A stretch of 64,000 nucleotides of DNA from NCBI GenBank assembly GCA_964187785.1, contig OZ076409.1, positions 23,190,001 to 23,254,000 of the forward strand. The letters run 5' to 3'. Origin of the DNA: Amphiscolops sp. MND2022 (lineage: Eukaryota). The number at the start of each line of letters is the position of its first letter. Positions within the stretch are counted from its first letter, which is position 1. Positions 2,537 through 33,945 of this stretch are shown here, piece by piece. The notes under the pieces are model-generated. The model searched no databases. It was not told the DNA's origin and was given only the letters and a program-made list of their open reading frames with translations. A program made the position numbers and the translations under genes.

Positions 2537-2619
2537 TCCGCAGGCTTGCGACAGTGCTGCGTTGATCGCCTTGTAATGGTCTAGTAGCTCTTCAGTGATT
2601 TTGATTTGTTTATCTGCTT

Positions 2620-9975: not shown

Positions 9976-11299
9976 TAAGCGTAAGAATTAAATTTCTCAA
10001 GCTGCCGACAATTCGTTTCTCCTGCGATGGAACGAGCGAGTGGTAATTATGCTTTCGTACGCCGAGTTAATGAGATGAAGCGAACGAGTGTTAATTATTC
10101 ATTCGCCGAGAGCTCCGCGTGGATTCAATTGCGAATGCGAAACTTCGTCTACCCTTACTAGTTATATTTTCTTTAGTCCGAGAGGAAATAAAAGCGGTGT
10201 AAACTGGTAGAGTCATTAATTTTGCGCTATTTAAATGAATAAGATATGCTTCTTTTATTGAATATGAAAGCTGAAAGCCTAAAAGCCGAAATGAAACTGT
10301 GCCTCGCAGGGGTCTATTTGGAGAAACTATTACCAATCGGAGAAAGTTGAAAACAAAATTCTTTTTAGCTTATTCCACTCATATAGTTGGAAAACCAAAC
10401 TACTAGAAGAAACTTTTTGGAAACAGAAATACCCAAAATTTGAGATAAATCAATAGAATTGACCTCGTCGCCCCTTGTAGTTCAAAGCCTCTAACGTGTT
10501 GAGCCAATAGAGACCTTTTTGATGTGTTGCTAAAGCCATATGAAGTGTGTTCAATTGCACAAAAAACCAACTTTTTATATGAATCTCAGGTTTAGTTAGT
10601 CTGGTTCAAAGAAAAAGTCAGATTTAGCGAGAATCGGGAGAGCGCTGAATAGAAAAACCTCTCTCGATGCATTGAAAGCAAGCAATTTACTTCGTTTCTG
10701 GTACAACTCTCCATCACTGCAAATACAGAGAGTGGAGAGATTGAATTCTAGTATGAAGAGAACCTGTCAAAATATAAAAAGTGATTTTGCGTTGAGAGTT
10801 GCCACTGCAGAAGGAACTGCCGCTGAACTGATGAAAGCATCTTTGAGAGAACTCGTGATAAAAAATTGTTAGCAAATTGTTTAGATTGCAAATTGCAAGT
10901 CAGTGTACAAATTGGAACGAACTTTTTTAAAAGCAAATTTTACTCCAGTGGTGCCTGCAAGCTTCATGAATTATCAAGCTTACAAAAGAATTGTGACTGA
11001 CAAATTTGGCCATTTTTTTGAACTAGAAGAATAATGAAGATAATCAGTGAAACATTTGCGAAAAAATGGATTGCAATCATGATGTAAAACGAATATGCTA
11101 CAGACCTAATTTCAAGGTAGTCGACTTATGTAGAACAATCTCTATTTCTAGCGGTTAAAACAGAAACATGGCGTTGTTAGGCAAGAAATATCGCGGATCA
11201 AATATTGAACTTCTTTTCACGTATGACTTATGGAAGGAAAAGAAATAATATTCGATATTTGAATGTTGATTAGCGAAAACTGAATTCCGCGTCGGTTTA

Positions 11300-11688
11300 G
11301 CTATGCGCTGTAGTTGGAAACCACTCAAAGTACCGGCAGTATGTCCGTGCAGAGACCCTTTTAGCCTGTCGCATTCCCCTCCAATGCAACAAGGGCGGTT
11401 ATGAACAAATGCGACATGATGAAATCCGAGACACCTTCGCCGCCAGCATGAAGGAGGTCTGTTTTGATGTCGAAATCGAGCCGAAGCTCCAGCCGTTAGA
11501 AGGCGAGTCCTTCGTTCATAAAACCACGTCAACTGAAGACGAAGCAAGAATAGACATTAAAGCCAATGGACTCTGGGATCCACGTTTCTGTCGAATTTTT
11601 ATCGACGTAGAATTTTTTGACCCACTAGTCAAATCATGCCTAAAAGAAATCAACGATGCATACAAGTTCCACGAAACACAAAAGAAAC
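11300..11688 (+). mobile_element. CRE-clade (RLE-type) non-LTR retrotransposon 3' fragment, left part
   Basis: C..GG...MRHDEIRD, VEIEPKLQPLEGE, ARIDIKANGLW, FIDV: zinc knuckle plus restriction-like endonuclease. Confidence 0.8.
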
Positions 11689-11957
11689 TGTACTGACCTA
11701 CATTAATAACCAATAGTATTTAGATGTTTATAGAATGTTCTAGAATGTACATTTATTTGTTATTGAATGATTGTAAATCTCTACTCCTTCAGAGAGAGAA
11801 AACTAATAATCAGTATTCAGTTGACTTCCTTTTTGTTCTACTCCTAACACCTCGGAATAGTTGTAATAAAGTAAGCTAGCTAGCCTGTCTCTCAGCCGCT
11901 TTTAGTAGTTGCGTAGACGACCATCAAAAACAATAACCAACCATTAAAAGCAGCACA
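11689..11957 (+). repeat. 5' LTR of element B (269 bp)
   Basis: TGTACT...GCACA; I count 4 substitutions versus 29895-30163. Confidence 0.97.
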
Positions 11958-11960
11958 ATT

Positions 11961-11975
11961 TGGTGCGACTTGTAA
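11961..11975 (+). promoter_or_regulatory. Primer binding site of element B (TGGTGCGACTTG...)
   Basis: TGG 3 nt after the LTR end; tRNA not identified. Confidence 0.7.
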
Positions 11976-12199
11976 AATTTTTCTTCTGCCTTTTCTCCTG
12001 GATGATTTCTCTTCTCTCAACAATCATACAAATACCACTCTCCATATTTGAAATTCTCTGGAATTGCAGTGAAATCTTTCTAGAATTTCTTGAAAGTTTG
12101 GTCTGTGACTTTCTAAATTTCATTAATAAATACATCATCGTTCGAAACACAATTTCTCCACTACAACAATCAACTTTAATATAACAAAGTTTCTTCACT

Positions 12200-12531
12200 A
12201 CCGGTTTATCACGTTTTCTAACACGTTGACACGGTTCTTCTTCCTGTTCTTCTAGCCATACCGGTTTATCACGTTTTCCAATACGTTGAAACGGTTTCAT
12301 TTCGGACTGATTTATCCATTGTGACACAGTTCTGTTTTTCTTCTTTTTCCAGACTGATTTATCCAAAGTGACACAGTTCTGTTCTCCATACTGATTTATC
12401 ACAGCTAATCCGGAAGCTTGTTGAAACAGTTCTCTGATGTTTGTCTGGTTTATCAAGGTTTTCTAACACCTTTGACACAGCAACATTTGTCTGGTTTATC
12501 AAGGTTTTCTAACACCTTTGACACAGCAACT
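12200..12531 (+). repeat. Degenerate tandem repeats in the leader of element B
   Basis: Recurring GGTTTATCA(C/A)G.TTTTCTAACAC units; near-exact ~46-bp duplication at 12440-12531. Confidence 0.85.
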
Positions 12532-14057
12532 TTCTTCAATCCTGCTATCTTGAACGTCAGGTGGACTCCTGGTGTAATAGTTGACTGAGTGCATGTCCAA
12601 CTCCGCTCACCTATAAGCACATACGTCTCAAGATCAACTTCGTGTTGGCAGAAAACCTGGATTTTCTACTTTTACGTTTCGGATCCCCTTTCTACAAAAT
12701 TTCCTACAAAAAATTTCAGAAATAGACTCTGAAAACAAAAAAAAGGCAACCAAAACTAACTACCAAAAACAACCACGCACTATTCCCTTTCTTTCCCCAT
12801 TGTCGACAAACAATACAAATAAATTCACAAAACTTAAATAATACAAATAACTTCAAAAATGTTTTCAATAACCAACAAAAATAACAATAACAAATAAACT
12901 CAAACTTACCTCAAGTACTTCCAATAATAATAATTTTAACATAATCCTACAAAACAATCATTTTAACAAAATACAACATACAATTTTCACAACTCTTTTG
13001 CTTTAAAACTTAAAATAAGGCATGTAAATAACACAAACAAAGTAAAGTTAGTTTTCTACTTTCAGGCACCCACAATTCCTATCCCCTCCCGTAAGACTTA
13101 GCCAATCAGACAGCCTCACCAGCGTACTCTGATTCTAAGACTGACTAAAAACCTTAGTTAAGTGTAAACGTTTTTAAGGAGAATCGAGAGGACACCGAAC
13201 TACGTTCGAATCTTCAAAATTCTCAGGAAGTAAAAAGGAAGTAAAAGAAACAAAGATCAAATTTTGATCTTGATCAGTATTGATCAGACTTTGGATAGTG
13301 GACGTTGATTGTTCAGAGTTCCACTCCTTTAGTCTTAAAACACACAACCCACTTAAAATTAAAACAACCTTAGTTTTTTCTGGACGTGTCAGTAACCTTA
13401 TGTTAGACACCTTAAAGTGATCCAGACTTAAAATAACATTTAGTTTCTGTTAGCAATCCTTTGAGGTTGAATACAGATCCTACTGCACCCGCTTATTTCT
13501 TCTCTATCCTAAAATATTAACTTCTCAAATAACTTCAAATTACAATACAACTTATATGAACCCAAACCAAGAAATTTATCCTTTCAACTTTTACATTCCA
13601 CCAATTAGCTCACTTCAAAACCCTACACCAAACGATTTTGAAAGATTAATTGAACGATATCAACGATATTTCTTCTTTATCATAAATCAACAAAGAAATT
13701 ACCCAAGAGCTCGAACTTAGAAAATCTTTATACAAGACATTTCAACGTTATAACCTTCACATTATAACATGTGGGAAAAGGTTACCACAGTAGTACTCAT
13801 TACAACATACACGTTTTGTGTCTTACTTATAGTTTGTGTTCTTCTTGAAAAAATACTTACAGTGATAAGAGATAAACTTTCAAAATGTCCTCAACGACAA
13901 CCCCTCTACCTTTCCAAACTCCCGTCATTAAAATGCAAAAGTTGTAAAATTAGAACTAAACCCATTTCTACAAAACATTATTTCACATTATACACAACCA
14001 CTCCCATTTGAAAATGAACCACACACAATTGAAACAATCCCTCTTATTAGAGAACAT

Positions 14058-17000
14058 TTGGACACATACCTTTTCTATATTAGATATAAAGTTTTAACAA
14101 TCACCGAAGAATACCCAACTTTTCAAATATCCTTTCCTCAACAAAGTATTAACTCATCTCATATATACAGAAGAACAATAAACCCAATAAACCTTCAAGT
14201 TCCTAATAAACAAGTTTTTCATGCTTTTCTAAATAATGTAAAAGACCACAATTTAGCACACGAAATTCCAGAATATAGTCCAAATGCACTCGACGATCTT
14301 CAACGATACATAGACAATTTCGACGTAGAAATTATTGAAACATTGGTTACTCCTGAAGACAACCCTCATCATTGGTTACAAGCTGATATATTACGAATTC
14401 AAAATTTCATCTACCACTACTTCAAAGACCTAACATTAAATGACCAAACAATTCCTCAGATCAAAGTAATATCTTTATTTCTCAGAAAATACTTCAGATT
14501 TAATTATCAACTATTATGTTCTCAACAAGATCAATCTGCTTTTACAGCATTTCCAGATCATTTTACATTAAAAGAATGTTTACCATTCATCATCAGTGAA
14601 CAAAATGAACACCCTTACTTTCATAAACCACAATTAATTACAAAACAAACCTTAGATTACATACGTTTCGATCCTCTATTAATTACAGAAAATGATCTAT
14701 TCCCAGATAATAGACCTTACCACTATCAACAAAATTCTCAAGATCAACAAAATTTACATTTTAACACTAACAATTCTACTGAAGATGATAACACCGGTCA
14801 GGAAAATACAACCCAACAACAAAATCAACCTGAAAACTATAACGATAATGAGTTTACTACCCAAGAATCTACAATCTCAACATATAATCCATCACAAACA
14901 GGGACATCAACATCAGTACATACTCACTCCTTTAGAGTTCCCACTAGAGTTGTAAATCAAAGACAAAATATACATAGTCCTCAATCTCATTTAGATACAT
15001 CTCCAAACCGTAATATAACTTTTAACCTTCCACATACAGATGACATAAACGATGAAACCCATGATACATTACAATATAATACTATGACTACATCTAGTGC
15101 TCAGAATACTTCTGCTAATGTTGCATCTCCAACAAGAACTACCTCTGATTCTACAAGATACATTACTCGACCTAGATATGATCCTCCATCAATTCCCTCC
15201 GCCTTTCGCCCAAACAGATCGACCACATCTAGTAACAATTTTAATGATAATCCTCAAACTTCCAACCGATATTACGATCCATTTAATTATAACTTTTATC
15301 CTCCATCAAACACAACTACCAATACAAATATAAACCAAAACCACTCTCAAATTAATACAATTTCAACAACACAAAACCCCTTCATACAATTATCAAATAC
15401 CAATACGTCTCAGAATATATATTCTCAAAATCGAGGAACCTCGTGTACTTCCATTTCTTATTCTAATATTACACAGGATTCTCAAAGAAGACTTCATAAT
15501 CCTCCACTTACACATATCCCAACTGATCCTCTGTATCGAATGCATCCAAATCCAAATCTTAACCCTAATCCTAACCCATTCTCACCAAATACAGTCCAAC
15601 ATATACCTCCACCACTCACACAACAATTAGCTTCTTCACCCCAATATCTACCAATGCCACAAGATACCTTTATAAACATGTCCGCTTCAATACCAGAACC
15701 TATGAAACCTTTTGATGGTTTGGACCATTCTTACACCCCCGAAGAATATCTACAACAAGTCGAAGCAAGATTAACCTTCGCCATAGGTGAAGAACCTCAA
15801 AATAATCCTATAAAATACAAATCTTGGCATAATAGACGCATGGCTTACATACAATGTTCATTAATAGGAACAGCTCTCGATTGGTACACTAACCTCCATA
15901 CATCATATAAACAACAATGGAATTCCTTTGTACAACTATTCAAAAAACAATTCTCATCTCAAAAAACTGCTTACTACGCTCAAGTAGAAGCTATGTCACT
16001 CATAAAAAAGGATAATGAAACAGTTCGCCACTTCGCCCTTAGAGTACAACAATTAGTTAAAAAGGGATGGTGTAATGAAAATGCAGCTACCATAAATCTC
16101 AAAAATAATGAAATCTTTACAAAAGGGTTAGCAAAGAAGTTAAAAGATTTTGCCCATAAACGACAAGTTAAACATGTATCAACATTACTTGAACCTTCAA
16201 TACCATTTCATACACTTGTTAGACATGTCGATTCTGAAGATATTGCTAATGAAAAAATCAGAACTAACGACTTGACCCTAGAAATAAACAAAGTATCGCT
16301 TGAAGAGGATACTAACAAAAAAGAATTTGAATACGAAGATCAGATAATGGTTACTCAAACTGGAGACCCAAATAACAAAAGCAAACCAGCGTATAGAAAA
16401 TATTGTTCCTATTGTCATAAAAATAATCATAGTATTTCAAATTGTTATCAAAAACAACGTGATGACGAATACCAGAAATACAATAACCAAAGATCACGAA
16501 CTCCTCAACAATCCTTTGTACAATATTTTCGCAGTAAACCTAATAATCCTCAGGAAAATCGAAATGAAAATACAAACTCTTATTCCTCAGATAATGATCG
16601 TATTAAATATAATCAAAACTACTATAATGATAGATACAGAAACAATGATAGATATCGTAGCAATAGTAGAAAATATTCGCAAAACACCTATAGATCAAAC
16701 TCTCGACAAAGATATTATAATCGATCCCGAAGTCCGTATAGATCTCGATTTGATAATTATTATCAAAGAAGAACACCATCTAGATCTCCATATAGATCTC
16801 CATACAGAAATAACTCAAATTACAGATATAATTCTCGCTCAAGATACAGATCTCGTTCTCAATCACAAGGAAACTCCTTTAAACGATATAATTATCCATA
16901 TAGATCTCCATCAAGACCTAGAGATTTTAGATCAAGATCTAGAACACCCTCAAGAAACAGACAACAAAACAGAATAAATCAAGTAGACGTTAAATCCCCA

Positions 17001-20000
17001 AAAGAAAATGATAGTACAAAATTTGAAATCCACACCTGTCAAATGACTGAAATAGCTAATACAATCACCCTTTATAGTTGGTTTTATCCACTATATATTC
17101 ACGCCTCTGAAACAAATGACAACATATTACCTTCAAAATTAGAAATCTTATTCCTTTTAGATACTGGAGCTTCCATATCTGTTTTGAATTTACCAACATT
17201 TCATGTAATTTCCAAACAATTAAACATCAATGTTCCAACTAACCTCCAAAACAAAAGAGCCAAAACTCTTACAGTTGCAAACCAAACTGAAGTACCAATA
17301 ATACATTTTATTTCGATGACCTGTTTCACTGAAGTAAATCACAAAACACGATCCTTCAATATCGATTTTGCCGTAGCAAATATCAAATACAACATTCTTG
17401 GAACACCCTTTTTCAAAAAGCACATCCAAAATATTGATTTTCAACAAAACATTATGACGTACACAGAACAACATCCAAAGCTTTCAACAAAAACTACATT
17501 TTCTACATTTACAGAAAAAGATTATCCATATATTTCTTACATTTATACTATTAAATGTAAGGAACCAATTCACTTTAAACCAAGGTCAGGAAAAACCATA
17601 CATTTTCCAATTAAAAACTATTCAAATCTACATTTTGAACTCGAAGATAATACGAAGTTCTACCCAACAAACCCATATACATATTTCTTACAAAAATTTA
17701 AAAATATCTTTCATTTCTTAGATATGATAGTCAATGAAAAAAGCAAAGACTCATGTGCAACCATAATTCAAAACTTTACATCTTACCCAGCTACATTACC
17801 ACGAGGAATTATTGGATATATAGAAATACCTATTACGCAAACAACTCCTCCTCACTACAGAGTTAACGATGTAAATTCACTCACTCACTCTGTAATACAC
17901 GCATATCACCCTGATACCACAACCCCGATTAAACAAATTCCATATACAGATATGAACTTATGTACTAGGGTAATACCACAATCCCTATTAGAAATAAACA
18001 AGATGGAAATTAACGACAAAACACTTCAACTTCCTATACCTTCTGTTACTGGAAACCTTCGACATTCAGATAAAATTCGAAAAGATTTCCCTCCATTAAC
18101 CTATTCTACAGAAAACCAACAATTCATAAAGAAGTTCAATTTCGAATACTCAGATTTAACCGATACAGAAAATGTAAATCTCTGCAATATTCTAATTAAC
18201 AACCAAAGGTGTTACGCCAAACATAAAAACGACGTAGGAAAGATTTCTACTCCTTTTCGAATTATAATAAAAGATAATTGTAAACTTCACACACAAAGAC
18301 CTTCTAAAGTACCTATCCACTATAGAGATAGACTAAATAAACTTTTACTAGAACTCGAAAAATACAACATCATAAAACAAATTGGTTCGACAACAGATGA
18401 AAAACATACTATTGGAACAACATTTTTAAACCCTTTAATTATTATCCCAAAAGGAGACGCAATAAAAGTTGTTTTAGACGCAAGACATCTAAACTCAAAC
18501 ACTAACCAAGAACTTGAATCTTGGCCTATTGAACCTTTAGCTCCTCAATTAGCTAGAGCAAATAAAAAATACAAATCAACTATTGATCTAATGTATGCAT
18601 ATGCTCATACACCATTAGATGAAGAAACAATTAAACTTACAGGATTTTCATCCGGTGACAAATTATACGCCTTTATCCGTGGATTTTACGGATTAAAAGG
18701 ACTTCCAAACTTTTTCACAAAACAAATGTCAACTTTCTTTAGATCACTTATAGACAAACGTTCTGCGTTAGTTTATATAGATGATATTCTATTACTCGCA
18801 AATGAAAAACAAGAAATGTTTGAACTTATAAAAGAATTACATACAATAGCATCTCGAGAAAATCTCAAACTTGCACCTGAAAAATCGTTCTACATGTTAC
18901 TCAAAGTAAAATTCCTTGGACAGGAAATTGGTAACAACACAATTAAACCAATTCCATCCAAAATTGAAGCTATTAAAAGAATCCCATCACCAAAAGAAAA
19001 GAAAGATGTTATGCAATTTCTTGGCAGTGTTAACTTTTATTCAAAATTCATTGAAAAACTTCATATAAACTTTAAACCATTGTATACATTACTACATGAT
19101 GATGTTAAATTTCAATGGACACCTGAATTAGAAAAACTATTTCGAAATGTTAAAAACGCAATGACAGCAGACACTGAATTAACAATACCCAACACCACGC
19201 ATCCATTTTTTATAACAGTAGATGCTTCGTTAGTAGGTTTAGGCGCAGTCTTATTCCAAATGAACGAAGAAAATAAGATGAAAGTAATCTCTTATAACTC
19301 CAGAATTCTCAATACACAAGAACAAAAACTTTCAACTTTAGACAGAGAACTTCTTGCAATAGTTTACGCATTACAAATATATGATTTTTTGATCATTGGA
19401 TCTCCTCATCCTATATATCTCTTCACAGATCACAAGCCTTTACTACATTGTTTCGCAAAGAAAGGAAATCTTAGTCCTAGATTCTATAGAGCACAAATGC
19501 AATTAACCAAATTCTCCAAATTAAAAATCATTCATACCCCTGGAAAAAATTTAACTGTGGCAGATATGCTTTCAAGAACCTTTACAAAAGAACAGCTACA
19601 AGTACACCAATTACGACACAAACAATTACCACCTCAAATAGATTTCTCTATCATGAAAGATAATTAACTCAAACCAGTACATTATTTAGTAAAACATGAA
19701 GAAATAAAATATAATCAAAAGAATGATTGTCATCCTATCCTTGCTGACTACGGAGACGACCAATTCTCCATCCGTATAAATAACAAAGGAGAAGATATAC
19801 ATATAAAGCCTTTAGATTCCTTCTCTTTTCAATCTATTGTTCCATTCGAATCAAAATATAAAAAGCCTACAAAAAAACAAGCAAAATCTCTTTTACAACA
19901 ATCGACAATTCTTAATGATACTGACATTCTTAGTGATGAAGATGAAATAACACCATCAAATAATATCCAACAACAAAACTCGAACATAGTAAAAGAATAC

Positions 20001-21921
20001 ACCCTCGCTATACAATATCCTACCAAATCTGACTATTGTAGACAACAAGTTCCATTTTTTGATCCATCCTTTTTCAAATACAAAAAATATTTTAATTACT
20101 TCTTCCTACCAGAAGATACACAAATAACCATTGAAACAATAAAAGCTCAACAAAATTAAGATACTGTTTTACAAAAGGTTTACCAATGGATACTTAATAA
20201 TGAAAGACCCTTACAAATAGACCCAACAATTGCAGCTAACTCTTTCTTATTAGTATATTACAAACTCTTCAACCAATTATATATTAATCATGATACAAAA
20301 ATTATTCACATAGATTATCCTAATCTTCACGATTCCAACCCGAATCAAAGAGACAAAATATGTCTACCATTTAAACTTTTCCACACAGCTTTTAACAAAC
20401 TTCATGCTCATGGACATTCAGGAATAAAAATATCCATCAAAGCTTTCAACCAATTTTACTTCATACCGTACCTGAATAAATGGATGTCAATATTCATCCA
20501 TGATTGCATTGAATGCCAACAAAATAAACATATTAACCAAAAATTACAAACTGCATCTATACAAACCTTCTCAGAAAATGCTTCATATTTTAATTACCGA
20601 ATATCAATGGATACAAAAGGACCTATAAACCCACCATCAAATCAAAATTCATACATTCACGTTATAGTAGACGCTTTTAGTCACTTTGTAGTAACAGTAC
20701 CCATAAAACAAAATAAAGCTCAAAACGCTGTTAACTCATTACTACATCATTGGATAACAAAATTTGGACCTCCTGTATACCTAGTTACCGACCCTGGAAC
20801 AGAATATATTATTTCAGAATTTGCAAATCTTTGTACCACAATGGGAATTAGACATTCACCAAGAACTCCTCATGCACCATGGACAAATGGTTTAGTTGAA
20901 AATCAAAACAGAAATCTTGGAACTCATCTCAGACTTTTCTTACATAACACTCCAGAAAATTGGTCAACTCAAGTCCATATGTATGCTTATGCACATAATT
21001 CACAACCACTTTCTGAATTAAACTTATCTCCATATGAAATAGTATTCCATACTATACCCAGAATTCCAATCAACTTTGAACTCAATCTCCAAAGAGATAC
21101 ATATAGAAATTGTACTTCTCAATATTGTCAAGAATTACCACTTCATACACACTATGAAAAATCAAATCTAAACCCTTTCTTTCATAAAATTTTATCTAAA
21201 CCAATTCCACAATGGATCTTAGCTACTGAAACTGCTATGATACAGATATACCATACGGTATATGAAAACACAAAAAGAAAGACTAATTCCTATGCTTATT
21301 TTAACAAAACATATCACAATCCAAGACCCTTAGATATTGGTACATTTGTACTAAAAAGAAATTTTCTCCATGTTCATTTTTCCGATTAAATTAAAACCTC
21401 TCAGAATTGGCCCATTCAAAATTATTAACAAACTCTCCGATATAACATATGAAATTGTTAATCAAGATGGTTATACATCGCACATACATAGAAATCATTT
21501 AATTCCTTATTATCCAAAAGAACCAGTTATTTTCCCTTTCATACAACAATATAACCCTCATTTATTTAATGATTGTCATTCAAATACAAACGATCAAATA
21601 ATTAACTCTCATGAAGACAAATTTACAGACGAAGAACAATTTCCTTCCACAACATTTAATAAAGAAACGGATATACCATCCACGATTGACTTACAACCAG
21701 AACCATTTAACCAATATTTTTCATTTCCATATAAACAAAAAGAACAAATTCCTCAAAATACCTCCCTGGATAACCAATCAGATGTTCATGATTATGATAA
21801 TTTTATTAATCCCCGAAGACACTCCTATATTAGATACAATTTCCGCTCACAACCAAGAAAAGACTACCGACTCTTCCTTGGTGAAAAGGATATAATTTCA
21901 CTTTCTCAAAAATCCTGCTGA
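14058..21921 (+). pseudogene. gag-pol: Element B gag-pol polyprotein (single frame; stops at 19665 and ~20158, frameshift at ~21380)
   Basis: MKPFDG, TALDWY, CSYCHKNNHSISNC, LLDTGAS, YIDD, VDAS, TDHKPL, ADMLSR, HAHGHSG/CIEC, ISMDTKGP, VDAFS, IGPF; a disrupted N-terminus probably begins at the ATG at 13556. Confidence 0.93.
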
Positions 21922-22132
21922 AATACGGAATACAGAAAGAAATACACACAAAGAAAGTTTGAAAGAAAGAAAAAGTTTGAAGCTTAATGCGAAAATAAAT
22001 GAAATTTATTTCACGAATGAGAATAAAAGAAAGAAATCCTAATTGATATAAAACTATAACTATTTTACAAGCTGAAACTAACTATCATAACACAACGATT
22101 TCAAAATTGATAGACATATTCACTCACCATCA

Positions 22133-23614
22133 TCAACTACAAATAACTCTTTTTCTAGTTCAACACATTCACTCCAAAGATTACCTGAATATACAGCATA
22201 TTTAAACTCAGATACAGACATACTGGATTCCTCATCCTCAAATCCCAGTCCATCCGCTCCATATACTCCTTATAGAGTACCAACAACACCCACTAATACA
22301 CCTATATCCCAAACTCAACCACAAATATTAACAACTCAATCACAACCTATTTCACGAAATCTAACATTTTTAGAAACAAATTCACCACTTTCTGACTCTA
22401 ATGATGAAACACCTACAATACCAAATACACAAGATACTTCAGATATTTTGAATAGACCTCCTCTTCCACCGATTACTACCACTCGTTCTATTCATATCCC
22501 TGATCCTAGCTCAGTCCTACAATACATAAATCCTTGTCCACACAAAGTACCAACTGCAACGAAAACAAAAAGAAAAACTCCTTTACCTACATTACCACAA
22601 AATCTTGATTTACCATCATCAAGTAATATCCCAATAACATTTTTACCAGAACCTTCATTAAAATCACCAACGAAAAAATCACAACAATACCCAACTCCTC
22701 CACCATCGGAACTAAGTTCCTTCACATTTTCTCAAATATATCCCAAGCTTGAATTACAACGTGTACATTCAACAACTACCTCTTCATTAACAGATTTATA
22801 TCATAAAGATAAAGACTCTGACTCAACTGCTAGTACTAGAGTACCAAGACATAATTATAACCTTCGATCTCAACAACAAAGAGATTCTCAAGAATTACAA
22901 TCCTTAACTAGTTCAAGTACAAACTCAAGACTACTTCGACAACACGCCCAACCCAGATTGGACACTTCTTCTCTTTCCTCATCTCAGCCCACTATACCAT
23001 CTTCTCTATCACTACCATTTCAAATCACATCAGGATTTGAAACAGCCTCTCTTCTTTCTGAAGAGCCAGCAACTATATCAGATAGCGCAGCTAATTTTTC
23101 ATGAGTTTACTCACCTAGTTCAATAGCATCAAACTCCCCTATACAATTACCTGAATATTTTTTAGAAGAATCCTCAAGACCTCCATCGCCAAATCCTCAC
23201 GAATATCCTATTCGTGTTAACTCAAAAATTGTTCGCACGCTTAACGAAGATCCTCGATACACGGTATTACCTGCAAGATTTATAAACAATAGTTCACTCT
23301 CAATTCAAAGAAAACAAAGAGAACTACGAAGATTACAAGAACAACAACTCACATTAAAATTTGAAGTAGAAGTCACATTCAACTCGTTAGGACCTCATCC
23401 ATTCTCTCTTTCAACAAGAGTAGCACATAAAACAACCCCATCACCATTCATTGTTACCTCCATTTCCTACCTTTGTGACGCAGATTTACCTGAGATTAGA
23501 ACAGGACAAATAAACTTTTTAATCCCTACTCAGGACTCAATTATAGATCAATATTTTAACCATGAACCAAATCACCTTTACCTTTCATTTAATATATATA
23601 ATACAAGTTGTTAA
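22133..23614 (+). pseudogene. Element B ORF between pol and env: Ser/Pro/Thr-rich with a more complex C-terminal ~110 aa; function unknown
   Basis: The frame of ORF 22448-23104 is open upstream and continues past one stop (23102); no ATG seen, so it may be spliced. Confidence 0.6.
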
Positions 23615-26134
23615 ATACACGTATATAATAAATATAGTTCACTCTTTAGTTCACCCTTCAACTGTTCCCAAAGTTGACACCACCAATTCCGAAAATCATA
23701 TTTCAGACCAAGATCCTAACATTTTAAACTTAATGGTATCTCATTATGATTGTGCAAAACAAAATAACTTAAGACAATTCAGTTTATTAAATGTAGAACC
23801 ATGTAAACAAGCACCCTCAGATATACAACACACAAAAACCCAAGCAACAGTTTACGTTAGAGCAAAAGCCAAAAGAATAAAAGCCTTTAAATGTGAAGCA
23901 TATATAAAGACTGAGAAAGTCTGGTGTTCACAAACATTCACATCTAGTAGACGATATGATCGTTTACAATGAAGACAAAACACATTAGAACTTCCAAAAA
24001 TATTAGACCCTATTGAATGCAAAAATATGATCAGATATTTAAACGCGACTGATAGCGAAGAATTAAACAACTACAATATACAAAGCTCTTTCTCATTGTT
24101 CGACGATAGTAATTATCAAAACACAATTGAACGAATTCAGACACCATTTAGAGTAAAAAAATTAAATACATGGCATATTGGAACCTTCGTATTTAACGAA
24201 AATTATCCTGATTGGATAATGTTACACAAAATACATACTCTAGATGTCGATCAGACCGCGAACATTTAATTACCCGACAAAGTTGGAAACTTAGAATTGT
24301 TAACACCGCAATAGATTATGACGATAAAAACAATCAATTAATACATAACGGACACATATTACCATGTTATCATTCAGACGGATTTTGTAAACCAACGACC
24401 AAAACTCCATATACATTAACATGGTTTGATGAAAAAGTTTGCCTCATATTTCAACTTCAAGAATTCATTGGTAGAATGACACGAATCAAAGATAGATATT
24501 GGATAGAAACCGATACCTTCATTGAAACTTCAAACATCACACAAAAACTTCAAACCGAAGGAATACAAGGAACAAAATACCCTAATATAAAAACACCACA
24601 ATCAAAAGTAAGCAATCCAAGCCTTTCTCAATTTGAAATATACCCAATTGCACAAACCTTCTGTGGAAAACCTGAACCATTATTTTCAACACAATATGAT
24701 GACATCTTTGTTACATACTTAGATGGTTTTGATATGAACACATGATTACCAAAACCACACTCAATAATTGACCAAACAATTAGTGGAAATATAAAATATG
24801 ATGATTCAAACAAAAGGTATATATTCCCTGCATTGAATATATCAAACAATTTCGCCACTTTAGACTATGATGCCCACATTAATACAAAGATTGATTTCAC
24901 AATAAATCATGTATTTAAATCCATGACAGTACAAGAACTAAACACTCTTCATACAATATGTGAACTAGAAAGAACTCAACTGTTAACAATACTATCAATG
25001 TCAGTTAAAAATCCCCAATTAGCCGGTTTTCTTTTAACTGGAAATCGTAGTAACTTTCTCTACGTTGAAGGATCTACAGCATGGCTGTATGATTGCCCTC
25101 ATTTTATATCACCACTATACAAGGCAGATAAATGCTTTGATAGAATTCCTATACACTACAGAGAAACAATAATGTATGTTGACCCAATAACAAGACAAAC
25201 TTTTAACTACGCAACACCAATTGAATGTGGAAATAACCCACAAAATATAATAGAATTAGATCCAGATTCCAACGACGGAGATTTTTATGTGTTAACACCA
25301 GAACCACTCAAACGAGAAGCACCACAAATGTTTAAACCTACTCAAATTAAAACAACAATCACTCCTGATACATTTACCGCCCAAGATGCCGGTATATACT
25401 CAAATGCAGAATTAGATCAATTCTGGAATAGAGTATTATTTGCTAAACATTCAGACACAACTCTTCAATTACTTGGAAAATCATTAAGCTATGATTTCAT
25501 TTCAATGCATAATGAAAAACACTCATACTCAGGACATAATCCCTATAATCATTTAAGGATTGGAGTACATGACCACTTGTTAAATCTTTTACCACTTTTT
25601 AACCCTGACTGGTTCAGTCAAGCATTCATTAATTTCTTTGGATACCCATGTTATGTTTTAACCCAATGTGGAATTTATTTTTCAACATTCCTTTTCATTA
25701 GAGAAGTTTTAACATTTTTACTCAAATTCTACAGAACAATTAGCATAAAATATAATCTCCAAAGCAACATTTCCATTTTGAGTTCAATAGCCCATGGATT
25801 TTTTAATATAGTTACATCGGAAATTGTAACCGATTTAAATAATACAGGAAAACGAAAACGGATATACACTAAACACAAAATTACAACAAGTGAAAATGAT
25901 AATATCCTATTGCCGGAAAAAGAATTAAACAATAAACGAAGACACTCTGATACTGACTCCCCTTATTTACCTCCTAAATATTCCAGTAAGAACTCAACAT
26001 TTCAATCACCGCAAAAGACACACCCAACTAATGTAAACGATATTAATTCTCAGGACTATGACCCAATAATGTCAAATGTAATAGCTGTACTGGAAAGTCC
26101 TGCTAAAGTCTTTATAAAATTCAATCCCTCCTAG
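23562..26134 (+). pseudogene. env: Element B env-like glycoprotein (~855 aa), resembling class III chuvirus G / gB-type fusogens
   Basis: Hydrophobic N-terminus, SHYDC, Cys-rich ectodomain, TICELERTQLL...NPQLAG...WLYDC...KCFDRIPI...YVDPITR...IEC, C-terminal TM; stops at 23970 and 24743, frameshift ~24215. Confidence 0.85.
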
Positions 26135-26550
26135 CTTAAAAGCAATAACTTAAAAAACAAATTAACCTCAAGAAAAGTTCACAAAATTATCAACCAAATT
26201 CTTCTCAGTTTCAACTTTCATTCACACCCAAATTCTCACTCGGACCGGTCTCTCCTTTTCAACTCAACTCAACTCTCAACCAGAAGACTTCAACTGGATT
26301 TTCAGTCCATCTAAACGACCGAAATCACAGAAGTTTCTATTCCTGGAATAGATGCCACTGTGATTGTTGATGTTTTCAACCCATCATTGACCCAGTATTC
26401 CCATATTGTAAGTACAATTTAAACTTTAATTTTACCAAACAATTTAATGGATAGAAAAGACATAACAAAATTTTTCCTTAGTATTAGAAATAATGTAATC
26501 AAATGTTATAATTATTATTTTAGCTCTACAAAAACACGCAAGTTTAAATA

Positions 26551-27843
26551 ATGGAATCCTTGCCCGAAATTGATGTAGTTAACTCTAATCCCTCTGAATT
26601 GCTTGCAACCCCTTTGAATATAACTATTCAACAAAATGTTAACGAAGATAATAACTCTTCCTCCAACTCTCACGACCCTATAGAAAATATCCCTATTGAA
26701 CAAGTAGATCATGTTAACACAAGATCTCAAAAAAGAAAGTACCCAGATATAACCGCAGATAAACCTTTTATGGAATCTGGCGCTTGCCCTCCTTTCATAA
26801 AACCAATTAAACAAGATGAAGATAGAGATTGTGAATTAGTTCCTATTCTCTCGTCGAAACAATTCACATTTCAATCTCAGTTAACTTCGTTATACATGAT
26901 TCCAACAAAATACAAATTCATCATCAGAGAATTTAAAAATGATTATCATACATCAATTGCTTCAAAACTGATTACCCCATATGATTGGTGGTTAAACAAT
27001 AAAGTGAAAATTTTCTCACTTCAATACAACTTCCTCAGACCATCTCCATATGATCTTCGAACAGAAGAAAATGATGCAAATTTTTTGCCATATCAAATCA
27101 AAAAGGCCCACCATACGACTTATCAAAAGTTCCTTCAATATAAAGAGCCCGATAATTATATATTCTTCAACTCCAAATATACATCGCCATTCACTTTCAA
27201 CTCAGAATATTTAATAGATCATACCAAAACAAAAGGAAAACATAGAAATTATGACCCGCTGAAACAAAGTTTTCTCTTCCTTCCAAATGATAACCCAAAA
27301 AGACCAATCATTGTTCCACAAGAATACCTCATTCTAAACGACGATTCGTTACTACAAGAAGATATACCTCAACATATATCTGATCCTCTTCCTCCACTTC
27401 AACAGATAGCCTCTCAACCATTGGGAGACTGTGAAAAGTCTTATTTCCACGCAATGATCAAAAAGGAATATTCAAATAATGAATTAATTTTCATTATTTC
27501 CCACCTACTTTCACTTATTACAAATGGAAATCACAAAGAAAATAAAAAGGCAAAACAAGAATCGCCTAAGAAATCCAAAAATGATATTCCTCAACCACAA
27601 AGGTTTCGCCCAACAGATGAATTACAGAAATATACAGAAATTCTGAATATCATAAAACCGTATCATCATCCAAACCGAGATATTCTTGTAACAATCGCTG
27701 AAATCGTAAATACCCTTGAACAAGCTCGAAGCATAATACAAAATATCGTATTTGATACGACAAGAATTAGCCAATCAGCTTTGTGCATTCGCACATCCTT
27801 AGACGAATTCAACTACACTATTGAAAAAATGCATCGATCTTAA
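26551..27843 (+). CDS. Element B accessory ORF, 430 aa, unknown function
   Basis: Intact ATG-initiated 430-codon ORF in AT-rich DNA between env and the 3' LTR. Confidence 0.75.
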   Translation: MESLPEIDVVNSNPSELLATPLNITIQQNVNEDNNSSSNSHDPIENIPIEQVDHVNTRSQKRKYPDITADKPFMESGACPPFIKPIKQDEDRDCELVPILSSKQFTFQSQLTSLYMIPTKYKFIIREFKNDYHTSIASKLITPYDWWLNNKVKIFSLQYNFLRPSPYDLRTEENDANFLPYQIKKAHHTTYQKFLQYKEPDNYIFFNSKYTSPFTFNSEYLIDHTKTKGKHRNYDPLKQSFLFLPNDNPKRPIIVPQEYLILNDDSLLQEDIPQHISDPLPPLQQIASQPLGDCEKSYFHAMIKKEYSNNELIFIISHLLSLITNGNHKENKKAKQESPKKSKNDIPQPQRFRPTDELQKYTEILNIIKPYHHPNRDILVTIAEIVNTLEQARSIIQNIVFDTTRISQSALCIRTSLDEFNYTIEKMHRS

Positions 27844-28364
27844 CTGGTAATTATGGGATAATAGCTTTAAAGTTGTTAACACTTATCATTTAATCTCTTA
27901 ACAACCTGTCAAAATTATTTGAATCTACACGCATATGCCTGCTATGCATGATTCTAATACATGCTTGATGTTAAAATACACTTTTAAAATGAAATAACAT
28001 AAAATTTTCAATCACGACATAAAAATTTTCAACGAAATTCTTCAATTGCTCCTCCTTTTAATGGACCGATTTCAACAAATAAGTACTTATATGAAAGATA
28101 TTTAAATACCCTTCAAAAAACTTCCAAAATACAACAACTTAATTCTTAAAATTAAAAAGTTATAACATCACAAAATTCAATAAAAAAATGTCAACTACGA
28201 AATTCTATTTTCAAAGGAACTTTATTGTAAACAAACTAATCTATTTTAGGTGAATATCGTCACAACTGCTTCTTCAGCATTCCTTCCTCCTCTCAGGTCA
28301 CCCATTCAAGAAGAATTCCGAAGTATCTTCTACAGCTTTCAACCAAATTTTCTCATTCTTCAAT

Positions 28365-28841
28365 ATGACAACTATCCACTCTGGCGACATTGACTGCCCG
28401 ATAGCTCCTTTTCTTTCAATCTCTTCAGCTCGATTGCGATCCTTGATCCTGAAAAAGCATTTAACGACATTAAATGCGCAGCTTCGAACAGAAAAAAAGG
28501 CAGACCCACATCTTACAAGGATGATATTGCTTAATATGTTCCAAATATTCCAAATAACAAGAATAAATTTCGACCAATATCTCCATATTCATAAACATCC
28601 TGACACTTATTCAACTCGAAAGGATGCCACTACCCAAACAGAACATACTACCATCAAACCCAAGCGTTTAATACGAACTCTATCCAATAGAATGCGTTCC
28701 GAAATGGAAAAACAACGTCTAAATTCATATTGGCCCTCAGATGACAATGATGACACTGACGAAGACCTTCAAAAAGATCCCCCAGAAGCACTTATAGATG
28801 ATAATTACCCACACAAAACATATACTTACGTTTCCTTCTAA
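28365..28841 (+). CDS. Element B accessory ORF, 158 aa, acidic C-terminus
   Basis: ATG ORF, preceded by an acceptor-like CTATTTTAG|G near 28249. Confidence 0.5.
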   Translation: MTTIHSGDIDCPIAPFLSISSARLRSLILKKHLTTLNAQLRTEKKADPHLTRMILLNMFQIFQITRINFDQYLHIHKHPDTYSTRKDATTQTEHTTIKPKRLIRTLSNRMRSEMEKQRLNSYWPSDDNDDTDEDLQKDPPEALIDDNYPHKTYTYVSF

Positions 28842-29387
28842 TATCAACAGACGCCACCAACAGCACCCGTCTACTCCCATCTTCGAATTCCACATCTTCA
28901 ACGAGCAACAGATCAGCACCCATCTTCAACTTCACCGCCGCCCAACAGTTGCCCACCTTCATTCATCTGCTGACCCTTCTTCTTCCATCTTCCAATCGTC
29001 CATCGTCACCCACATGCTCAGCCGAAGATGATCGATAAGTAATAATAAAGAAAACTCAAAGAAAAACATTGTGCATGATAACATTTCGAAAAAGTTTCAA
29101 ACTCATCTAATATTTCATAGAATTCAAACTCTCATCTAAATTATTCATTATGTAGTTATTATTTCAAATTTCATCCCCACCCACATTTATTTGCCCAAAA
29201 ATTTTTATTCACACCTGTACCGATATTTATTTGCTTTATTTTTAAAGAATAATTAGTAATAAGTATTATTTTTCGGTGCTATCGTACCCAACAAAAAATT
29301 CACAAATATTATCAACAAATCTTTTCAAATTTCAACAAAACCAGCTCCAAATCAGATCACGCACATTGTTCAGATCAAATTCGAATA

Positions 29388-29796
29388 ATGACAGACCCAA
29401 GTTCTCAAAGTTTTCAACATTTGTTACATAACAAACCCGCCAAAGTTAATTACAACCTGGAATCTTTTCAAACGTATTTCACGTTCGATAAAAATTTTTT
29501 CTCAACAATATTATTTCTTTGACTCTTTGACCTCTAACTCGTATGATGTTTGCTCACGTTTGTTCAATGCGAAGTTCATTCAAAACTTCAACAGAAGCAT
29601 AAAATTGAGCATCTACCAGTTCAAAAAACAAGCCGACGAAAGCATAGTGAAAAAGAACACTTTGACGCTTTTGAACTGTAGTCGCACCTACGAGGTGTCA
29701 ATCAAAATTTTGACAATTCGAGGTACACCAATGAGTCGAACTTACACCACTCTTAACGAGACTTATGCCAATCATCCATCAAATGAAAAATGTTAA
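29388..29796 (+). pseudogene. Possible last accessory ORF of element B (frameshifted)
   Basis: ATG at 29388 (MTDPSSQ...) shifts into ORF 29527-29796. Confidence 0.35.
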
Positions 29797-29878
29797 CTAG
29801 CTGAAACGCTAAGAACATTTAAACAAAAAATTTTTCTTCATTTCAATTAATGATGCTACTTTAAAATTTTATTTTATT

Positions 29879-29894
29879 TAAAAACCGGGATGGA
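29879..29894 (+). promoter_or_regulatory. Polypurine tract of element B
   Basis: AAAAACCGGGATGGA abutting the 3' LTR TG. Confidence 0.7.
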
Positions 29895-30163
29895 TGTACT
29901 GACCTACATTAATAACCAATAGTATTTAGATGTTTATAGAATGTTCTAGAATGTACATTTATTTGTTATTGAATGATTGTAAATCTCTACTCCTTCAGAG
30001 AGAGAAAACTAATAATCAGTATTCAGTTGACTTCCTTTTTGTTCTACTCCTAACATCTCGGAATAGTTGTAATAAGGTAAGCTAGCTAGCCTGTCTCTCA
30101 GCCGCTTTTAGTAGTTGCGTATAAGACCATCAAAAACAATAACCAACCATTAAAAGCAGCACA
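29895..30163 (+). repeat. 3' LTR of element B
   Basis: Direct repeat of 11689-11957. Confidence 0.97.
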
Positions 30164-30167
30164 AAAC

Positions 30168-30463
30168 TCAAATATGAGTCGCGAAATATCATCGATGGAA
30201 AGAGCACTTTCAACCCGCTCGTATTGGCCTGCACTGGTGGAGCTGGACCATCAGTCACAGAAGTCATAACCCGACTTGCGTCAAATGTCAACGAAAAAGG
30301 TAATGAAAGCTATTCTGAAGCCATTAGCTATATCCGAACCAAAATAAGTTTCGCCCTACTTCACAGCTGCGTGCTCTGTCTAAGGGGCTGTAGGTCGACG
30401 CGCTGTAAACCAGCCACGGAATCATCGATCAGCGCTGTTGTCAACGAAGGAGGGCTGTCATGA
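30168..30463 (+). mobile_element. CRE-clade non-LTR 3' fragment, right part
   Basis: PLV.ACTGG.GP...RLA...YSEAISYIRTKISFALLHSCVLCLRGCR. Confidence 0.8.
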
Positions 30464-30584
30464 ACCGGACAATACTTCGGGTGGGACTAATTCTAGAATC
30501 AGAACTTTTTTCTTTTCTCTGGACGTTCAGTAAATTTGAGATACGATAACCTAGTTCAAAAATCATCCTCCACTTGCCGTTTTT

Positions 30585-30669
30585 TCAGATTTTGTATTTT
30601 TATGAGACCGTTACTGACACTGTAAGTCCTACAGTGTCAGTAACGGTCTCATAAAAATACAAAATCTGA
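30585..30669. repeat. Perfect 40-bp inverted repeat with a 5-nt loop
   Basis: 30585-30624 is the exact reverse complement of 30630-30669. Confidence 0.95.
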
Positions 30670-31754
30670 GGCGGCTCTGCAGCTTGCAGCGTTTTGACAC
30701 CTGATCTCTTGCCATACACTTTTATATTTAAATTTACCGTCACGCCCCCTCTGCACTATGGCAGATTAGCTTTACAATATTGTAAAATCAACAAAGGTAG
30801 ATTCAGAAAATGTCAAAAAATGAACAAATCAGGCACTTAAAATTTGGAAATACAGTTTAACGTGTAAATATTTTGAGAAAAAAACTGAGCATTTTCTGTT
30901 TCCAAATAGTAATATCCATATGGATCCAAAATAGTTCTACCGAAAGTCCCCTTTGTCCATCTACTTACTTCAATTGAGCAGTAAAGATGTCCCCTTTGAC
31001 AATAACGCACCCATACCAGATTTAACGCAAGCCGGATATAAGTGATACTGGATATAACGTATACCGGATATAGCGTTTCTTTTAGAAAATTTCAATGATA
31101 CCAAAGGGTCCCTCTTTTAATTTTCAGAAACTTTAGAATTGATACAAAATCATTTGAAGACAAAGGGTCCCCCTTTAGATTTTTCTTTGGCGCAAATTGG
31201 GATTAACGAATACCGGAATTAACGTATTACGGACATAACGTTTCTTGGAAAATTTTTCAATATTAGAAAAAGGTCACCTTTCGATTTTCAGGAAGTTTAG
31301 AGTTGATGAAAAATCATATAAAGCCGAAGGATTCCCCTTCGGATTTTCTCCGGTATTGACAGAACGTAATCTTTTTCAACTTAACTGAACAGCTAGTTTC
31401 ATTCTCAATACTTTGAGAATCATGTTTTTCAGAAATTATTGAAACAGAAGAGTCCATAATTTTTTTGGTGTTTTGAGCTACGGGAAACGCGGCTTTCAAG
31501 TCTTATGGGCATTCCTTCGGGTTTTTTGGCACTGTAATCTTGAAGAAGATTTCTGAATAGTGTCCTTAAAGATTGATTTTTGGCACTTTGGGACGTTTTT
31601 CCGAGGAAAACATTTTGAAAAAATAGGTTTTTGTTGTTTGCAGTGGGGGAAAAGGTTGTTCTTGAGCTTTATGTGTATTCCTTTGAGAATTGTTTTACTG
31701 AGAAATTAATAGAATTTCAACCAGGGTGTTTTTTGCATATTTAAGAACCTTGCT

Positions 31755-32333
31755 TTCTAGTCGGCGCTTTTTCTTTTTAAGGAAAAATGCTCGCCTGTTA
31801 CAGTGACCTTTTTTCTTCAGACCACAGACCTCACACTGATCCGTCCACTTTTTAGAGAAACTCGTGAAACCACTAAGGCCAAGTCCGGCCAATGCAAAGT
31901 AAGTGCAAGGGGTCCCCTTTTTTAAGGTAACCTACAAAACCGGACGAGATTAAAGGGTCCCCCTTTTTGATTTTTTTTCGGCACTGTGCGAATTTTTTCC
32001 GAAATTTTTTTAATGTCTCAAAAGGGTCCCCTTTCGAGTATCTTGATATTTTGCAACAGAATGTATGTTATTAAGTCTTAAAGGGCCCCCCTTACATTTT
32101 TCGGCACTATGCAACATTTTCCGAAAAAAATCCGAATTTTTTTTAAAAAGTATTTGTTTTTGTTCCAGTTGTAGGAAAAGTGGTTTTCAAGTCTTATCGA
32201 GCTTGAAAGGCAACCTTTGGGTGACTCGAAACTGTTTTCTGAGCTTTTCATAAATACATCCTGGGCATATTTCAAAAACTTTGCGCTTTTTGAGCCTTAG
32301 ATAGAGCGCCGCCTTTAGACGTTCTCGTCTTGT
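31755..32333 (+). mobile_element. HINE-like (Helentron-associated) non-autonomous element, copy 1
   Basis: 5' AGTCGGCGCT, 3' AGCGCCG(C)CT plus AGACG-TTCT-CGTCT hairpin plus TGTT. Confidence 0.6.
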
Positions 32334-32782
32334 TTATGTTGGAGGGAATACGATACAAATACGAAAAGAGCACGTGTTAAAAGAAAGGCGAGTCGTAGCA
32401 AGTTGAAGAGGGTTTCGTATACGCTGCAAGCTGCAGAGTCGATTAGCGATTCAAACTAGCGACAACTAATAGAGTGTCTAAATTCAAAACTTCCTCGGAA
32501 TATACACGAAGTTTCGAAATGAATTTTGTAAAGTTCCACTGTTAGGCCTGTAATAAAACTCACACTGTATGAGAAATTTTCTTGCAAAAATTGAAAAAAG
32601 TCATCATTGGATTTTGAAACATACTGAATTGAAACAATTTATAGTTACAAGGCGAAGTTTTTCAACGAAATAGCGATTCTGGAATAGCGGTTTAGCGAAT
32701 AGCAAAAAAATAGCGATGTCAAAATCTTTTCTGAATAAGTCGGCAACAAATGTCTGAATAAGCCCTGAAAAGGACACATTTT

Positions 32783-33727: not shown

Positions 33728-33942
33728 CACCTGGCTGATCTATCTAGTGAAGTCTTTGATAATGCTCTAGAAGCAACTCTGACAAATTCAGGCCCCACAC
33801 CGACCCCAATGGCAGTTCTCCGCCGGGTCACAGTAAGTCCTCCAACTAAGGGCGTTAAGTCGTCTAGTTCCTGCAACGGGGCTGGCGAAAAAGTTGCAGG
33901 GGTCCCGAGTTGGACTGACATTGGAAGCCAGAGTTTATTGAG
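33728..33942 (+). CDS. Candidate host-gene internal exon (HLADLSSEVFD...SQSLLR)
   Basis: TTTTTAG acceptor, stop-free GC-richer 215 nt, AG|GTG donor-like end at the gap edge. Confidence 0.4.
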
Positions 33943-33945
33943 GTG

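Follow-up and report, generated by a model that had tools for sequence, protein, structure and literature searches.

The question raised by this locus is whether a gypsy-type retroelement can maintain a set of working genes beyond gag, pol and env. It concerns an 18.5-kb provirus-like element at positions 11689-30163 of a 64,000-nucleotide stretch of contig OZ076409.1 from Amphiscolops sp. MND2022 (hereafter the window; all positions are counted from its first letter, and features lie on the + strand unless marked otherwise). The original prediction described a Gypsy element with the genome plan of a complex retrovirus, carrying several accessory open reading frames (ORFs) around env. We found that the interval is a recent Ty3/gypsy insertion, a decayed copy of a high-copy family, and that three of its extra frames, termed ORF3, A and B, behave in their substitution patterns as real genes needed by replicating copies. 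Both the identity of the element and the purifying selection of the extra genes are, in our judgment, nearly certain.

The insertion is delimited by a 4-nucleotide target-site duplication, AAAC (11685..11688 and 30164-30167), and by long terminal repeats (LTRs) of 269 nucleotides with TG...CA ends (11689..11957 and 29895..30163), which differ at 4 sites over 269 nucleotides and match the predicted coordinates. It interrupts a host repeat, whose uninterrupted second copy at about 37700-38300 shows the empty site (near 38010). The predicted primer-binding site and polypurine tract were also located: the core of the former, TGGTGCGAC, lies at 11961..11969 (the same 9 nucleotides occur in 9 of 10 family copies and in both sister copies compared) and the latter at 29880..29894, with a similar tract preceding sister 3' LTRs. 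No tRNA gene matching the primer-binding site was found within the 64-kb window. The coding content agrees with the prediction of gag, protease, reverse transcriptase (RT), RNase H and integrase in a single frame, followed by env and ORFs of 430 and 158 amino acids, all on the sense strand. That strand was expected to be rich in A and C; its A-richness was confirmed, but the measured composition (A 38.5%, C 21.8%, G 10.8%, T 28.9%) is A-rich and G-poor. Premature stops occur in the window copy at 19665, 20157, 23102, 23970 and 24743, and frame changes between 13885 and 13932, near 21370, near the ORF3 end and near 24240.

The 1.07-Gb genome contains Wnt genes, which mark the host as an animal; that it is an invertebrate, as predicted, is likely. 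The genome was searched for ORF A, yielding 7721 first-look candidates (a figure that is not a copy number), of which 98 were scored; all 98 places matched at 96% identity or more. From these, the 3' halves of 20 places were sampled, together with the 5' halves of 15 of those 20. The sampled copies are 95-99% identical to the window element and mostly colinear, and in all 10 measurable copies the LTR pairs are 98.1-100% identical and the target-site duplications are 4 nucleotides long. Of 15 aligned 3' halves, one of them from the window, 8 have ORF3 open to 23559, 4 have an open env, 13 an open A and 10 an open B; the figure for A is inflated because the copies were picked as top ORF A matches. 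Divergent A homologs revealed three further families in the genome: an older, intermediate family (about 78% identical to the window in nucleotides and 92% in RT), family 3, with an RT identity of 76-78%, and a sister family made up of two subfamilies, at 71-72% in RT. Related elements measure approximately 17.2-18.5 kb where both LTRs were located, and in all four families one or more small transmembrane upstream ORFs come first, followed by a single-frame gag-pol, ORF3, env, A and, in most cases, B. The four families form one clade, with 100/100 support against the genome's other elements bearing a glycoprotein B (gB)-type env, in an RT tree of 17 rows built from elements of this genome only, with no named references. 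Sister-family LTRs (L045 rc 1254-1574; L037 1273-about 1610), read by eye, start with TG and end with TA rather than CA, and share the same primer-binding-site core.

The status of the extra frames was judged from the ratio of non-synonymous to synonymous substitution rates (dN/dS), calculated between families by the pairwise Nei-Gojobori method. Between the sister subfamilies, the values were 0.04 for pol, 0.13 for gag, 0.08 for env, 0.10 for ORF3, 0.06 for A, 0.25 for B and 0.23 for the upstream ORF, with shifted-frame controls at 0.7-5.5. Comparison of the window with the intermediate family gave 0.05 for RT, 0.09 for env, 0.16 for A, 0.18 for B, and 0.43 and 0.15 for the N- and C-terminal parts of ORF3, respectively. 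Within the window family, where only variants present in at least 2 copies were counted, the ratios were 0.07 for gag, 0.06 for RT, 0.12 for env, 0.24-0.28 for ORF3, 0.13 for B and, with a biased estimate, 0.04 for A; spacer-frame controls gave 0.45-1.23. On these ratios, ORF3, A and B are real genes that replicating copies need. Conservation and purifying selection of the accessory frames, which the original prediction had itself named as the test on which it would stand or fall, were thus borne out for these three (dN/dS 0.06-0.43). The extra ORFs might instead be passive cargo, or by-products of an A-rich, G-poor strand, as their lack of any Pfam, PDB or Atlas assignment, their low-complexity composition and the absence of a B common to all families would suggest. 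With dN/dS far below 1, against 0.45-5.5 in the off-frame and spacer-frame controls, we give that explanation a negligible chance; the ratios speak decisively against it for ORF3, A and B, while it does hold for the frames at 26069 and 29388. Frames at 26069, 28798/28805, 29388 and 29392 were all rejected as genes. The ATG at 26069, from which an ORF had been proposed to run to about 26540, is the last Met codon of env, and its frame stops with env at 26134. No ATG-started ORF of at least 55 amino acids recurs at 26069 or 29388 among 15 copies, and the shared changes in the 29388 frame, another possible ORF of the prediction, are 10 non-synonymous and 0 synonymous. The expectation of several accessory genes after env therefore stands for two ORFs, A and B, and falls for the other two.

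The prediction of a retrovirus lineage was not supported as worded: by its RT and RNase H matches the element is of Ty3/gypsy (Metaviridae) type rather than a member of the Retroviridae. The best RT matches among solved structures were Ty3 (E 1e-37), foamy virus (2e-18) and murine leukemia virus-type enzymes (3e-12 to 2e-11), and Pfam and PDB sequence searches identified one RNase H, of the Ty3 type. Neither search detected a second RNase H, although a very divergent one could be missed by them. The hallmarks of Ty3/gypsy elements, namely TG...CA LTRs, a target-site duplication of 4-6 nucleotides (4 here), a primer-binding site and a polypurine tract, are all present. A place in the Retroviridae or the lokiretrovirus/Odin branch would account for the complex plan, the length of approximately 18 kb and a foamy-like motif, and lokiretroviruses also took their env from negative-strand RNA viruses (PMC7947760). 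However, Ty3 is the nearest match for both RT and RNase H, the second RNase H that retroviruses have besides a tether was not detected, and the lokiretroviral Env described in that source is of the paramyxovirus F type, while the Env here matches PF24664; we regard such a placement as highly improbable. A class I Env of the retroviral or lokiretroviral kind (or none, as described for Odin) was rejected on the same PF24664 match, and Troyka was rejected on its described requirement for CG...CG ends and a 3-nucleotide duplication, against TG...CA and 4 nucleotides here. Foamy and other complex retroviruses share with the element gag-pol-env followed by 3' accessory genes, late domains and a Tyr-x-x-Arg motif, but they belong to another RT lineage; here the fusogen is of class III rather than class I, and no second RNase H was detected.

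The env gene (23562..26134) encodes 856 amino acids where open and is broken in the window copy. The Monjiviricetes fusion glycoprotein family, PF24664, matches the window env in Pfam with an E of 1.2e-20, and the sister env also scores above the cut-off; on this match, Env is classed as a gB/chuvirus-G-type (class III) fusogen. It contains 16-19 cysteines, and a PPxY motif is found in its C-terminal tail in all four families. The element shares with the gB-type errantiviruses, whose Env is further marked by a five-domain gB fold with fusion loops and cysteine bridges, a gB/chuvirus-G env beside a gypsy pol and many near-identical copies. It could be argued that Env is no longer used for spread, and that the family copies itself inside germ cells with the extra ORFs serving intracellular replication or counter-silencing: high copy numbers are possible without infection, only 4 of 15 copies have an open env, and the membrane anchor of Env is weakly hydrophobic. 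Against this, the env dN/dS of 0.08-0.09 between families and 0.12 for shared variants within the family indicates that the gene was needed throughout, and gag-pol is broken about as often as env. We therefore consider disuse of Env improbable.

The most informative extra gene is ORF3, positioned before env (22223..23559; broken in the window copy). It comprises approximately 445 codons from a conserved CTG, with a Ser/Thr/Pro-rich N-terminal part and a conserved C-terminal domain of 140 amino acids. The original prediction placed this gene at 22133-23614; the gene is real, but in 8 of the 15 copies aligned it ends at the site equivalent to 23559, and it is without an ATG. Met is absent over the whole 410-451 codons counted from the CTG, in every family. 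All 19 window-family sequences have the start context ATA-CTG-G, and all 10 sisters have ATC-CTG-G. ANN-CTG-G was found at 8 of 8 further loci, while a ninth locus, L060, which is broken there, showed none. Elsewhere CTG is a rare Leu codon, accounting for 1/150, 1/239 and 2/240 in three gag-pol frames. From the start of the ORF3 frame to env, five sister loci have 0-1 ATGs, compared to 6.5-8.5 expected from dinucleotide frequencies, and other loci have 2-3 compared to 9-10 expected. Out-of-frame ATGs within ORF3 numbered 0, 1, 3 and 3 in four loci, compared to 6.7, 7.6, 8.0 and 6.9 in codon shuffles, with p values for the four loci of <0.0005, 0.002, 0.018 and 0.053; none of 8 control regions showed ATG depletion under shuffles. 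The env ATG lies 1-8 nucleotides past the ORF3 stop in three families and overlaps the ORF3 end in family 3.

These features suggest a model in which a subgenomic RNA, starting after pol through a splice or an internal promoter, would be scanned by ribosomes, some of which would start ORF3 at the CUG in its strong context while the others continue through approximately 1.2-1.4 kb with few AUGs until they reach that of env. Leaky scanning past the CUG would then fix the ratio of ORF3 to Env. A non-AUG start combined with leaky scanning through AUG-free sequence is described for rice tungro bacilliform virus (RTBV; PMC5902531). On the sequence evidence, we hold this translation model to be probable.

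The possible role of ORF3 is suggested by short motifs. All 7 aligned ORF3 proteins keep YPxL and YNLR unchanged within a Ser/Thr/Pro-rich part that varies elsewhere (probability from shuffling 0.3-1.8% per family), and PSAP is found in three of the four families; basic residues follow the YNLR. The Tyr-x-x-Arg anchor of foamy Gag likewise reads YNLR, and in rhabdoviruses the M gene directly precedes G. Late domains fall into three classes, PT/SAP, YPXnL and PPxY, and are described both for rhabdovirus matrix proteins and for Gag (PMC8402826). Like a matrix-glycoprotein pair, ORF3 would recruit the endosomal sorting complexes required for transport (ESCRT) via YPxL/PSAP, and the Env tail would recruit NEDD4-type ligases via PPxY; YNLR may in addition tether ORF3 to nucleosomes. 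We give a budding role for ORF3 together with cell-to-cell spread an even chance. A different reading makes ORF3 a nuclear regulator (Rev-, Tas- or CERV-like, or chromatin-tethering), perhaps the second exon of a spliced gene. The invariant YNLR with its following basic residues resembles the nucleosome anchor of foamy Gag, which binds through invariant Tyr537 and Arg540 (PMC12125541, in which the word YNLR occurs once), and in Cer1 the post-pol ORF of the accessory protein CERV forms the latter half of a gene joined by splicing (PMC10309623). For ORF3, however, CTG-G is the precise point at which conservation begins, and an in-frame stop lies shortly 5' of it (2-7 codons away in two families, with no AG between). 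No AG occurs within 150 nucleotides in 2 of 3 sister copies, and the third has one at 58 nucleotides, outside the open frame. A spliced exon would also leave the deficit of out-of-frame AUGs and the abutting env start unexplained. We consider the nuclear role unlikely, and the budding helper is provisionally placed ahead of it.

Several points weigh against this interpretation, which as far as translation and budding are concerned is read from sequence. In the window family AUGs are only partly depleted (codon-shuffle p of 0.16 and 0.11 for the two ORF3 pieces of the window), two out-of-frame ATGs (22401 and 22404) are present in 19 of 19 window-family sequences, and the deficit is weaker under synonymous shuffles (p 0.007-0.38). 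The ORF3 motifs are short, were noticed post hoc and come from families that share ancestry; PSAP, with a shuffle chance of approximately 4%, is missing from the sister family, and YNLR/YNFR also ends Pol in these elements and so is not peculiar to ORF3. The transmembrane segment and signal peptide predicted for Env are weakly hydrophobic, and an R-x-[KR]-R furin site was not seen in the two sister Env proteins. The spacers showed no enrichment of splice-acceptor-like words with a pattern that missed some sites picked by eye; the ORF3, A and B RNAs may arise from a promoter or by splicing. The functions proposed for A and B are drawn from position and analogy. With these points taken into account, we moderately favor the view that the locus holds one decayed copy of a Ty3/gypsy element that has multiplied recently and has a gB-type fusion gene and three selected extra genes, an element that would probably spread from cell to cell in enveloped form with ORF3 as a budding helper.

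Searches with ORF3 and A gave no names. Pfam, PDB-sequence and Atlas searches returned nothing usable for either protein; relatives of A, ORF3 and env in protein databases are all unnamed, and no relatives were found for A in the metagenome and viral contigs searched or for ORF3 in the viral contigs searched. AlphaFold models were poor, with a mean predicted local distance difference test score of 52 for the ORF3 C-terminal domain and 34 for A, which has a predicted helical C-terminus. Fold searches with the poor ORF3 model gave a best Z of 3.5 and no Foldseek E below 0.001. ORF A (26551..27843, 430 amino acids, no known family) has homologs in all four families that are 35-79% identical. ORF B (28365..28841, 158 amino acids), which is open in 10 of 15 copies and without a family in a Pfam scan, is lineage-specific: its homology is limited to the window and intermediate families (62% identical), and unrelated B genes occupy the same place in family 3 and the sisters, no homology being detectable between the B genes of the window and the sisters. 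Frames for a B gene, some of them broken, were listed at 6 of 6 loci of the intermediate family, 9 of 10 of the sisters and 2 of 4 of family 3. A and B would be expressed from further subgenomic RNAs and may be regulatory or host-antagonizing, A being conserved and core-like and B turning over between lineages.

The predicted leader of approximately 1.6-2 kb is present and measures 1.93 kb, the family gag frame opening at ATG 13885. It contains a hydrophobic ORF of 60 amino acids (12002..12184; 15 of 15 copies), for which a dN/dS of 0.31 against one intermediate-family copy is weak evidence; a doubtful ORF of 54 amino acids (13556..13720; 15 of 16 copies; dN/dS 0.54 and 0.82 against the intermediate family); and an ORF of 37 amino acids with one hydrophobic transmembrane helix (13769..13882; 14 of 16 copies; dN/dS 0.18 and 0.36). 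The last stops 2 nucleotides 5' of the gag ATG in the family, extending to 14011 in the window copy. Different small transmembrane ORFs likewise precede gag in other families, and in the sisters the upstream stop overlaps the gag start as TAATG. Gag-Pol would be made from full-length RNA after these small ORFs, by leaky scanning or stop-restart.

The gag-pol frame (13885..21921, broken in the window copy) encodes capsid, one CCHC knuckle (16404), an Arg/Ser-rich tract, protease (DTG at 17160), RT (YIDD at 18774), RNase H and integrase. Pfam identified Retrotrans_gag (PF03732), RT (PF00078), Ty3-type RNase H (PF17917/17919) and the integrase zinc finger and core (PF17921, PF00665), so that the pol order is protease-RT-RNase H-integrase. 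The tract after the single CCHC (16570-17050) is long and rich in Arg, Ser and Tyr, with 33 Arg and 28 Ser in 160 amino acids; it resembles the nucleic-acid-binding tails of the hepadnaviral core protein or foamy Gag. Two conserved pol segments have no domain match, one of about 200 amino acids between protease and RT (17500-18200) and one of about 280 between RNase H and the integrase zinc finger (19520-20370). Among gB-type errantiviruses, the bridge-region type (mini or pseudo RNase H) distinguishes ancient from insect groups. A dUTPase-like domain suspected between protease and RT was without PDB support.

Further env types in the genome match PF24664, and seven such loci, with RT 45-48% identical to the window, were compared. 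Six of them (the L078-L089 clade) have a pol-env gap of 3.5-4.8 kb with several ORFs of 70-176 amino acids, and two ORFs after env. The second post-env ORF encodes a protein with a MATH domain of the TRAF type (lowest Pfam E 4e-22 among the five scanned) and with no RING match (e.g., L079:3157-3909 and L081:3083-4057), possibly a signaling decoy. Between two families of this clade, dN/dS was at most 0.12 for the three pre-env ORFs compared, while the pair of ORFs after env gave 0.13 and 0.06; the pre-env ORFs of 106-168 amino acids resemble a duplicated family. The seventh locus (L076-L077) is an 11.7-kb gB-env gypsy element with separate gag and pol frames, 508-nucleotide LTRs and a post-env ORF of 519 amino acids belonging to no known family. 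No relationship to A, B or ORF3 was detectable for the extra ORFs of the seven loci; a match of A residues 213-257 to the first post-env ORF of the distant clade lacked significance (hhalign E 0.16) and failed decoy ranking, and was provisionally rejected. Multi-gene plans are the rule among the gB-env elements sampled in this genome, and at least one distant-clade extra gene looks like a host signaling adaptor, which by analogy would support an accessory, host-directed role.

Among known systems, the closest are the gB-type (HSV/gB-type) errantiviruses, widespread env-carrying Ty3/gypsy elements treated as three-ORF elements (Chary and Hayashi, PMC13524379). They share the Ty3/gypsy pol, the gB/chuvirus-G-like env, the LTRs and multiple copies in an animal genome, but the present element is 18.5 kb long, with a pol-env gap of 1.64 kb and three more selected genes. 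The screen described there covered regions of up to 10 kb and pol-env gaps of up to 1 kb, with a manual step 3-5 kb downstream of pol, and such filters disfavor the present layout; six taxon names looked for in its supplements gave 0 matches. Anakin/BEL-Pao elements carry the same captured glycoprotein class (PMC12440569, PMC13524379), with a BEL-Pao pol, whereas RT and RNase H are of the Ty3 type here. The Oikopleura Tor elements are gypsy elements with env, and the Tor4b env RNA, which comes from an internal promoter after pol, offers a model for the subgenomic RNA proposed here; as described, they are without extra ORFs or a non-AUG gene (PMC4402516). Cer1 of C. elegans is likewise a gypsy element with a post-pol accessory gene, CERV, but this is a single Rev-like gene on a spliced RNA, and its ORF is not an Env (PMC10309623). 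The giant planarian gypsy element Burro is large, with env-like and accessory content and a MATH/TRAF domain as in the distant clade, but its env and extras are described in one polyprotein (PMC6431247). The large rotifer gypsy elements also carry extra content, described as a single enzyme or env ORF3s (PMC5408684). RTBV resembles the present proposal in that its first ORF has a non-AUG start and is followed by sequence with few AUGs, through which ribosomes can arrive at the next ORF, but it is a plant pararetrovirus using an AUU start on pregenomic RNA, with experimental evidence there and inference here (PMC5902531). Neither this multi-gene layout nor a CUG-started gene coupled to env was found in the literature searched, which did not extend to Repbase, Dfam and subscription journals. 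Capture of env by gypsy elements is already published (PMC13524379), and single extra ORFs close to env are also known; the present lineage has a selected five-gene plan with a likely non-AUG bicistronic ORF3-env unit. We know of no similarity of the Burro or rotifer extras to A, B or ORF3.

The DNA around the element contains further repeats. Copies of the interrupted host repeat (11070-11688 with 30164-32528, and 37405-40315) are 89-95% identical and include an approximately 165-nucleotide tandem array, and a 40-nucleotide perfect inverted repeat lies at 30585-30669. Three more decayed gypsy-like elements were identified, at 68-6581 (-), 33942-36803 (+) and 42033-47373 (+), the first with an RT 23% identical to that of the main element. 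A fragment of a non-LTR-type reverse transcriptase (PF00078) lies at 9395-10066 (-), and a large imperfect palindrome at 57273-60624, with arms of approximately 1.2 kb that are 82-92% complementary, may represent a DNA transposon or foldback element.

Complex vertebrate retroviruses are usually seen as the ones marked by accessory genes and polycistronic expression, while gypsy elements with env are described as having three genes. In this one animal, several active families keep five main genes and small membrane ORFs under strong selection, and the selected five-gene plan in gypsy families suggests convergent evolution of the complex plan. PMC13524379 raises as an open question how an Env of the gB type can function in a retroelement that lacks the herpesvirus partners; ORF3, coupled to env and bearing putative budding motifs, is a candidate partner. 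The length and gap filters of current screens would tend to miss such elements, and more may therefore exist. We tentatively suggest, at well short of even odds, that they represent an independently evolved radiation of complex invertebrate retroviruses within Ty3/gypsy, which would bud by means of a rhabdovirus-like matrix-glycoprotein module, with a CUG-started ORF3 bearing late domains translated together with a class III fusogen, and would counter host defense with changing accessory genes, including TRAF-like signaling decoys in the distant clade.

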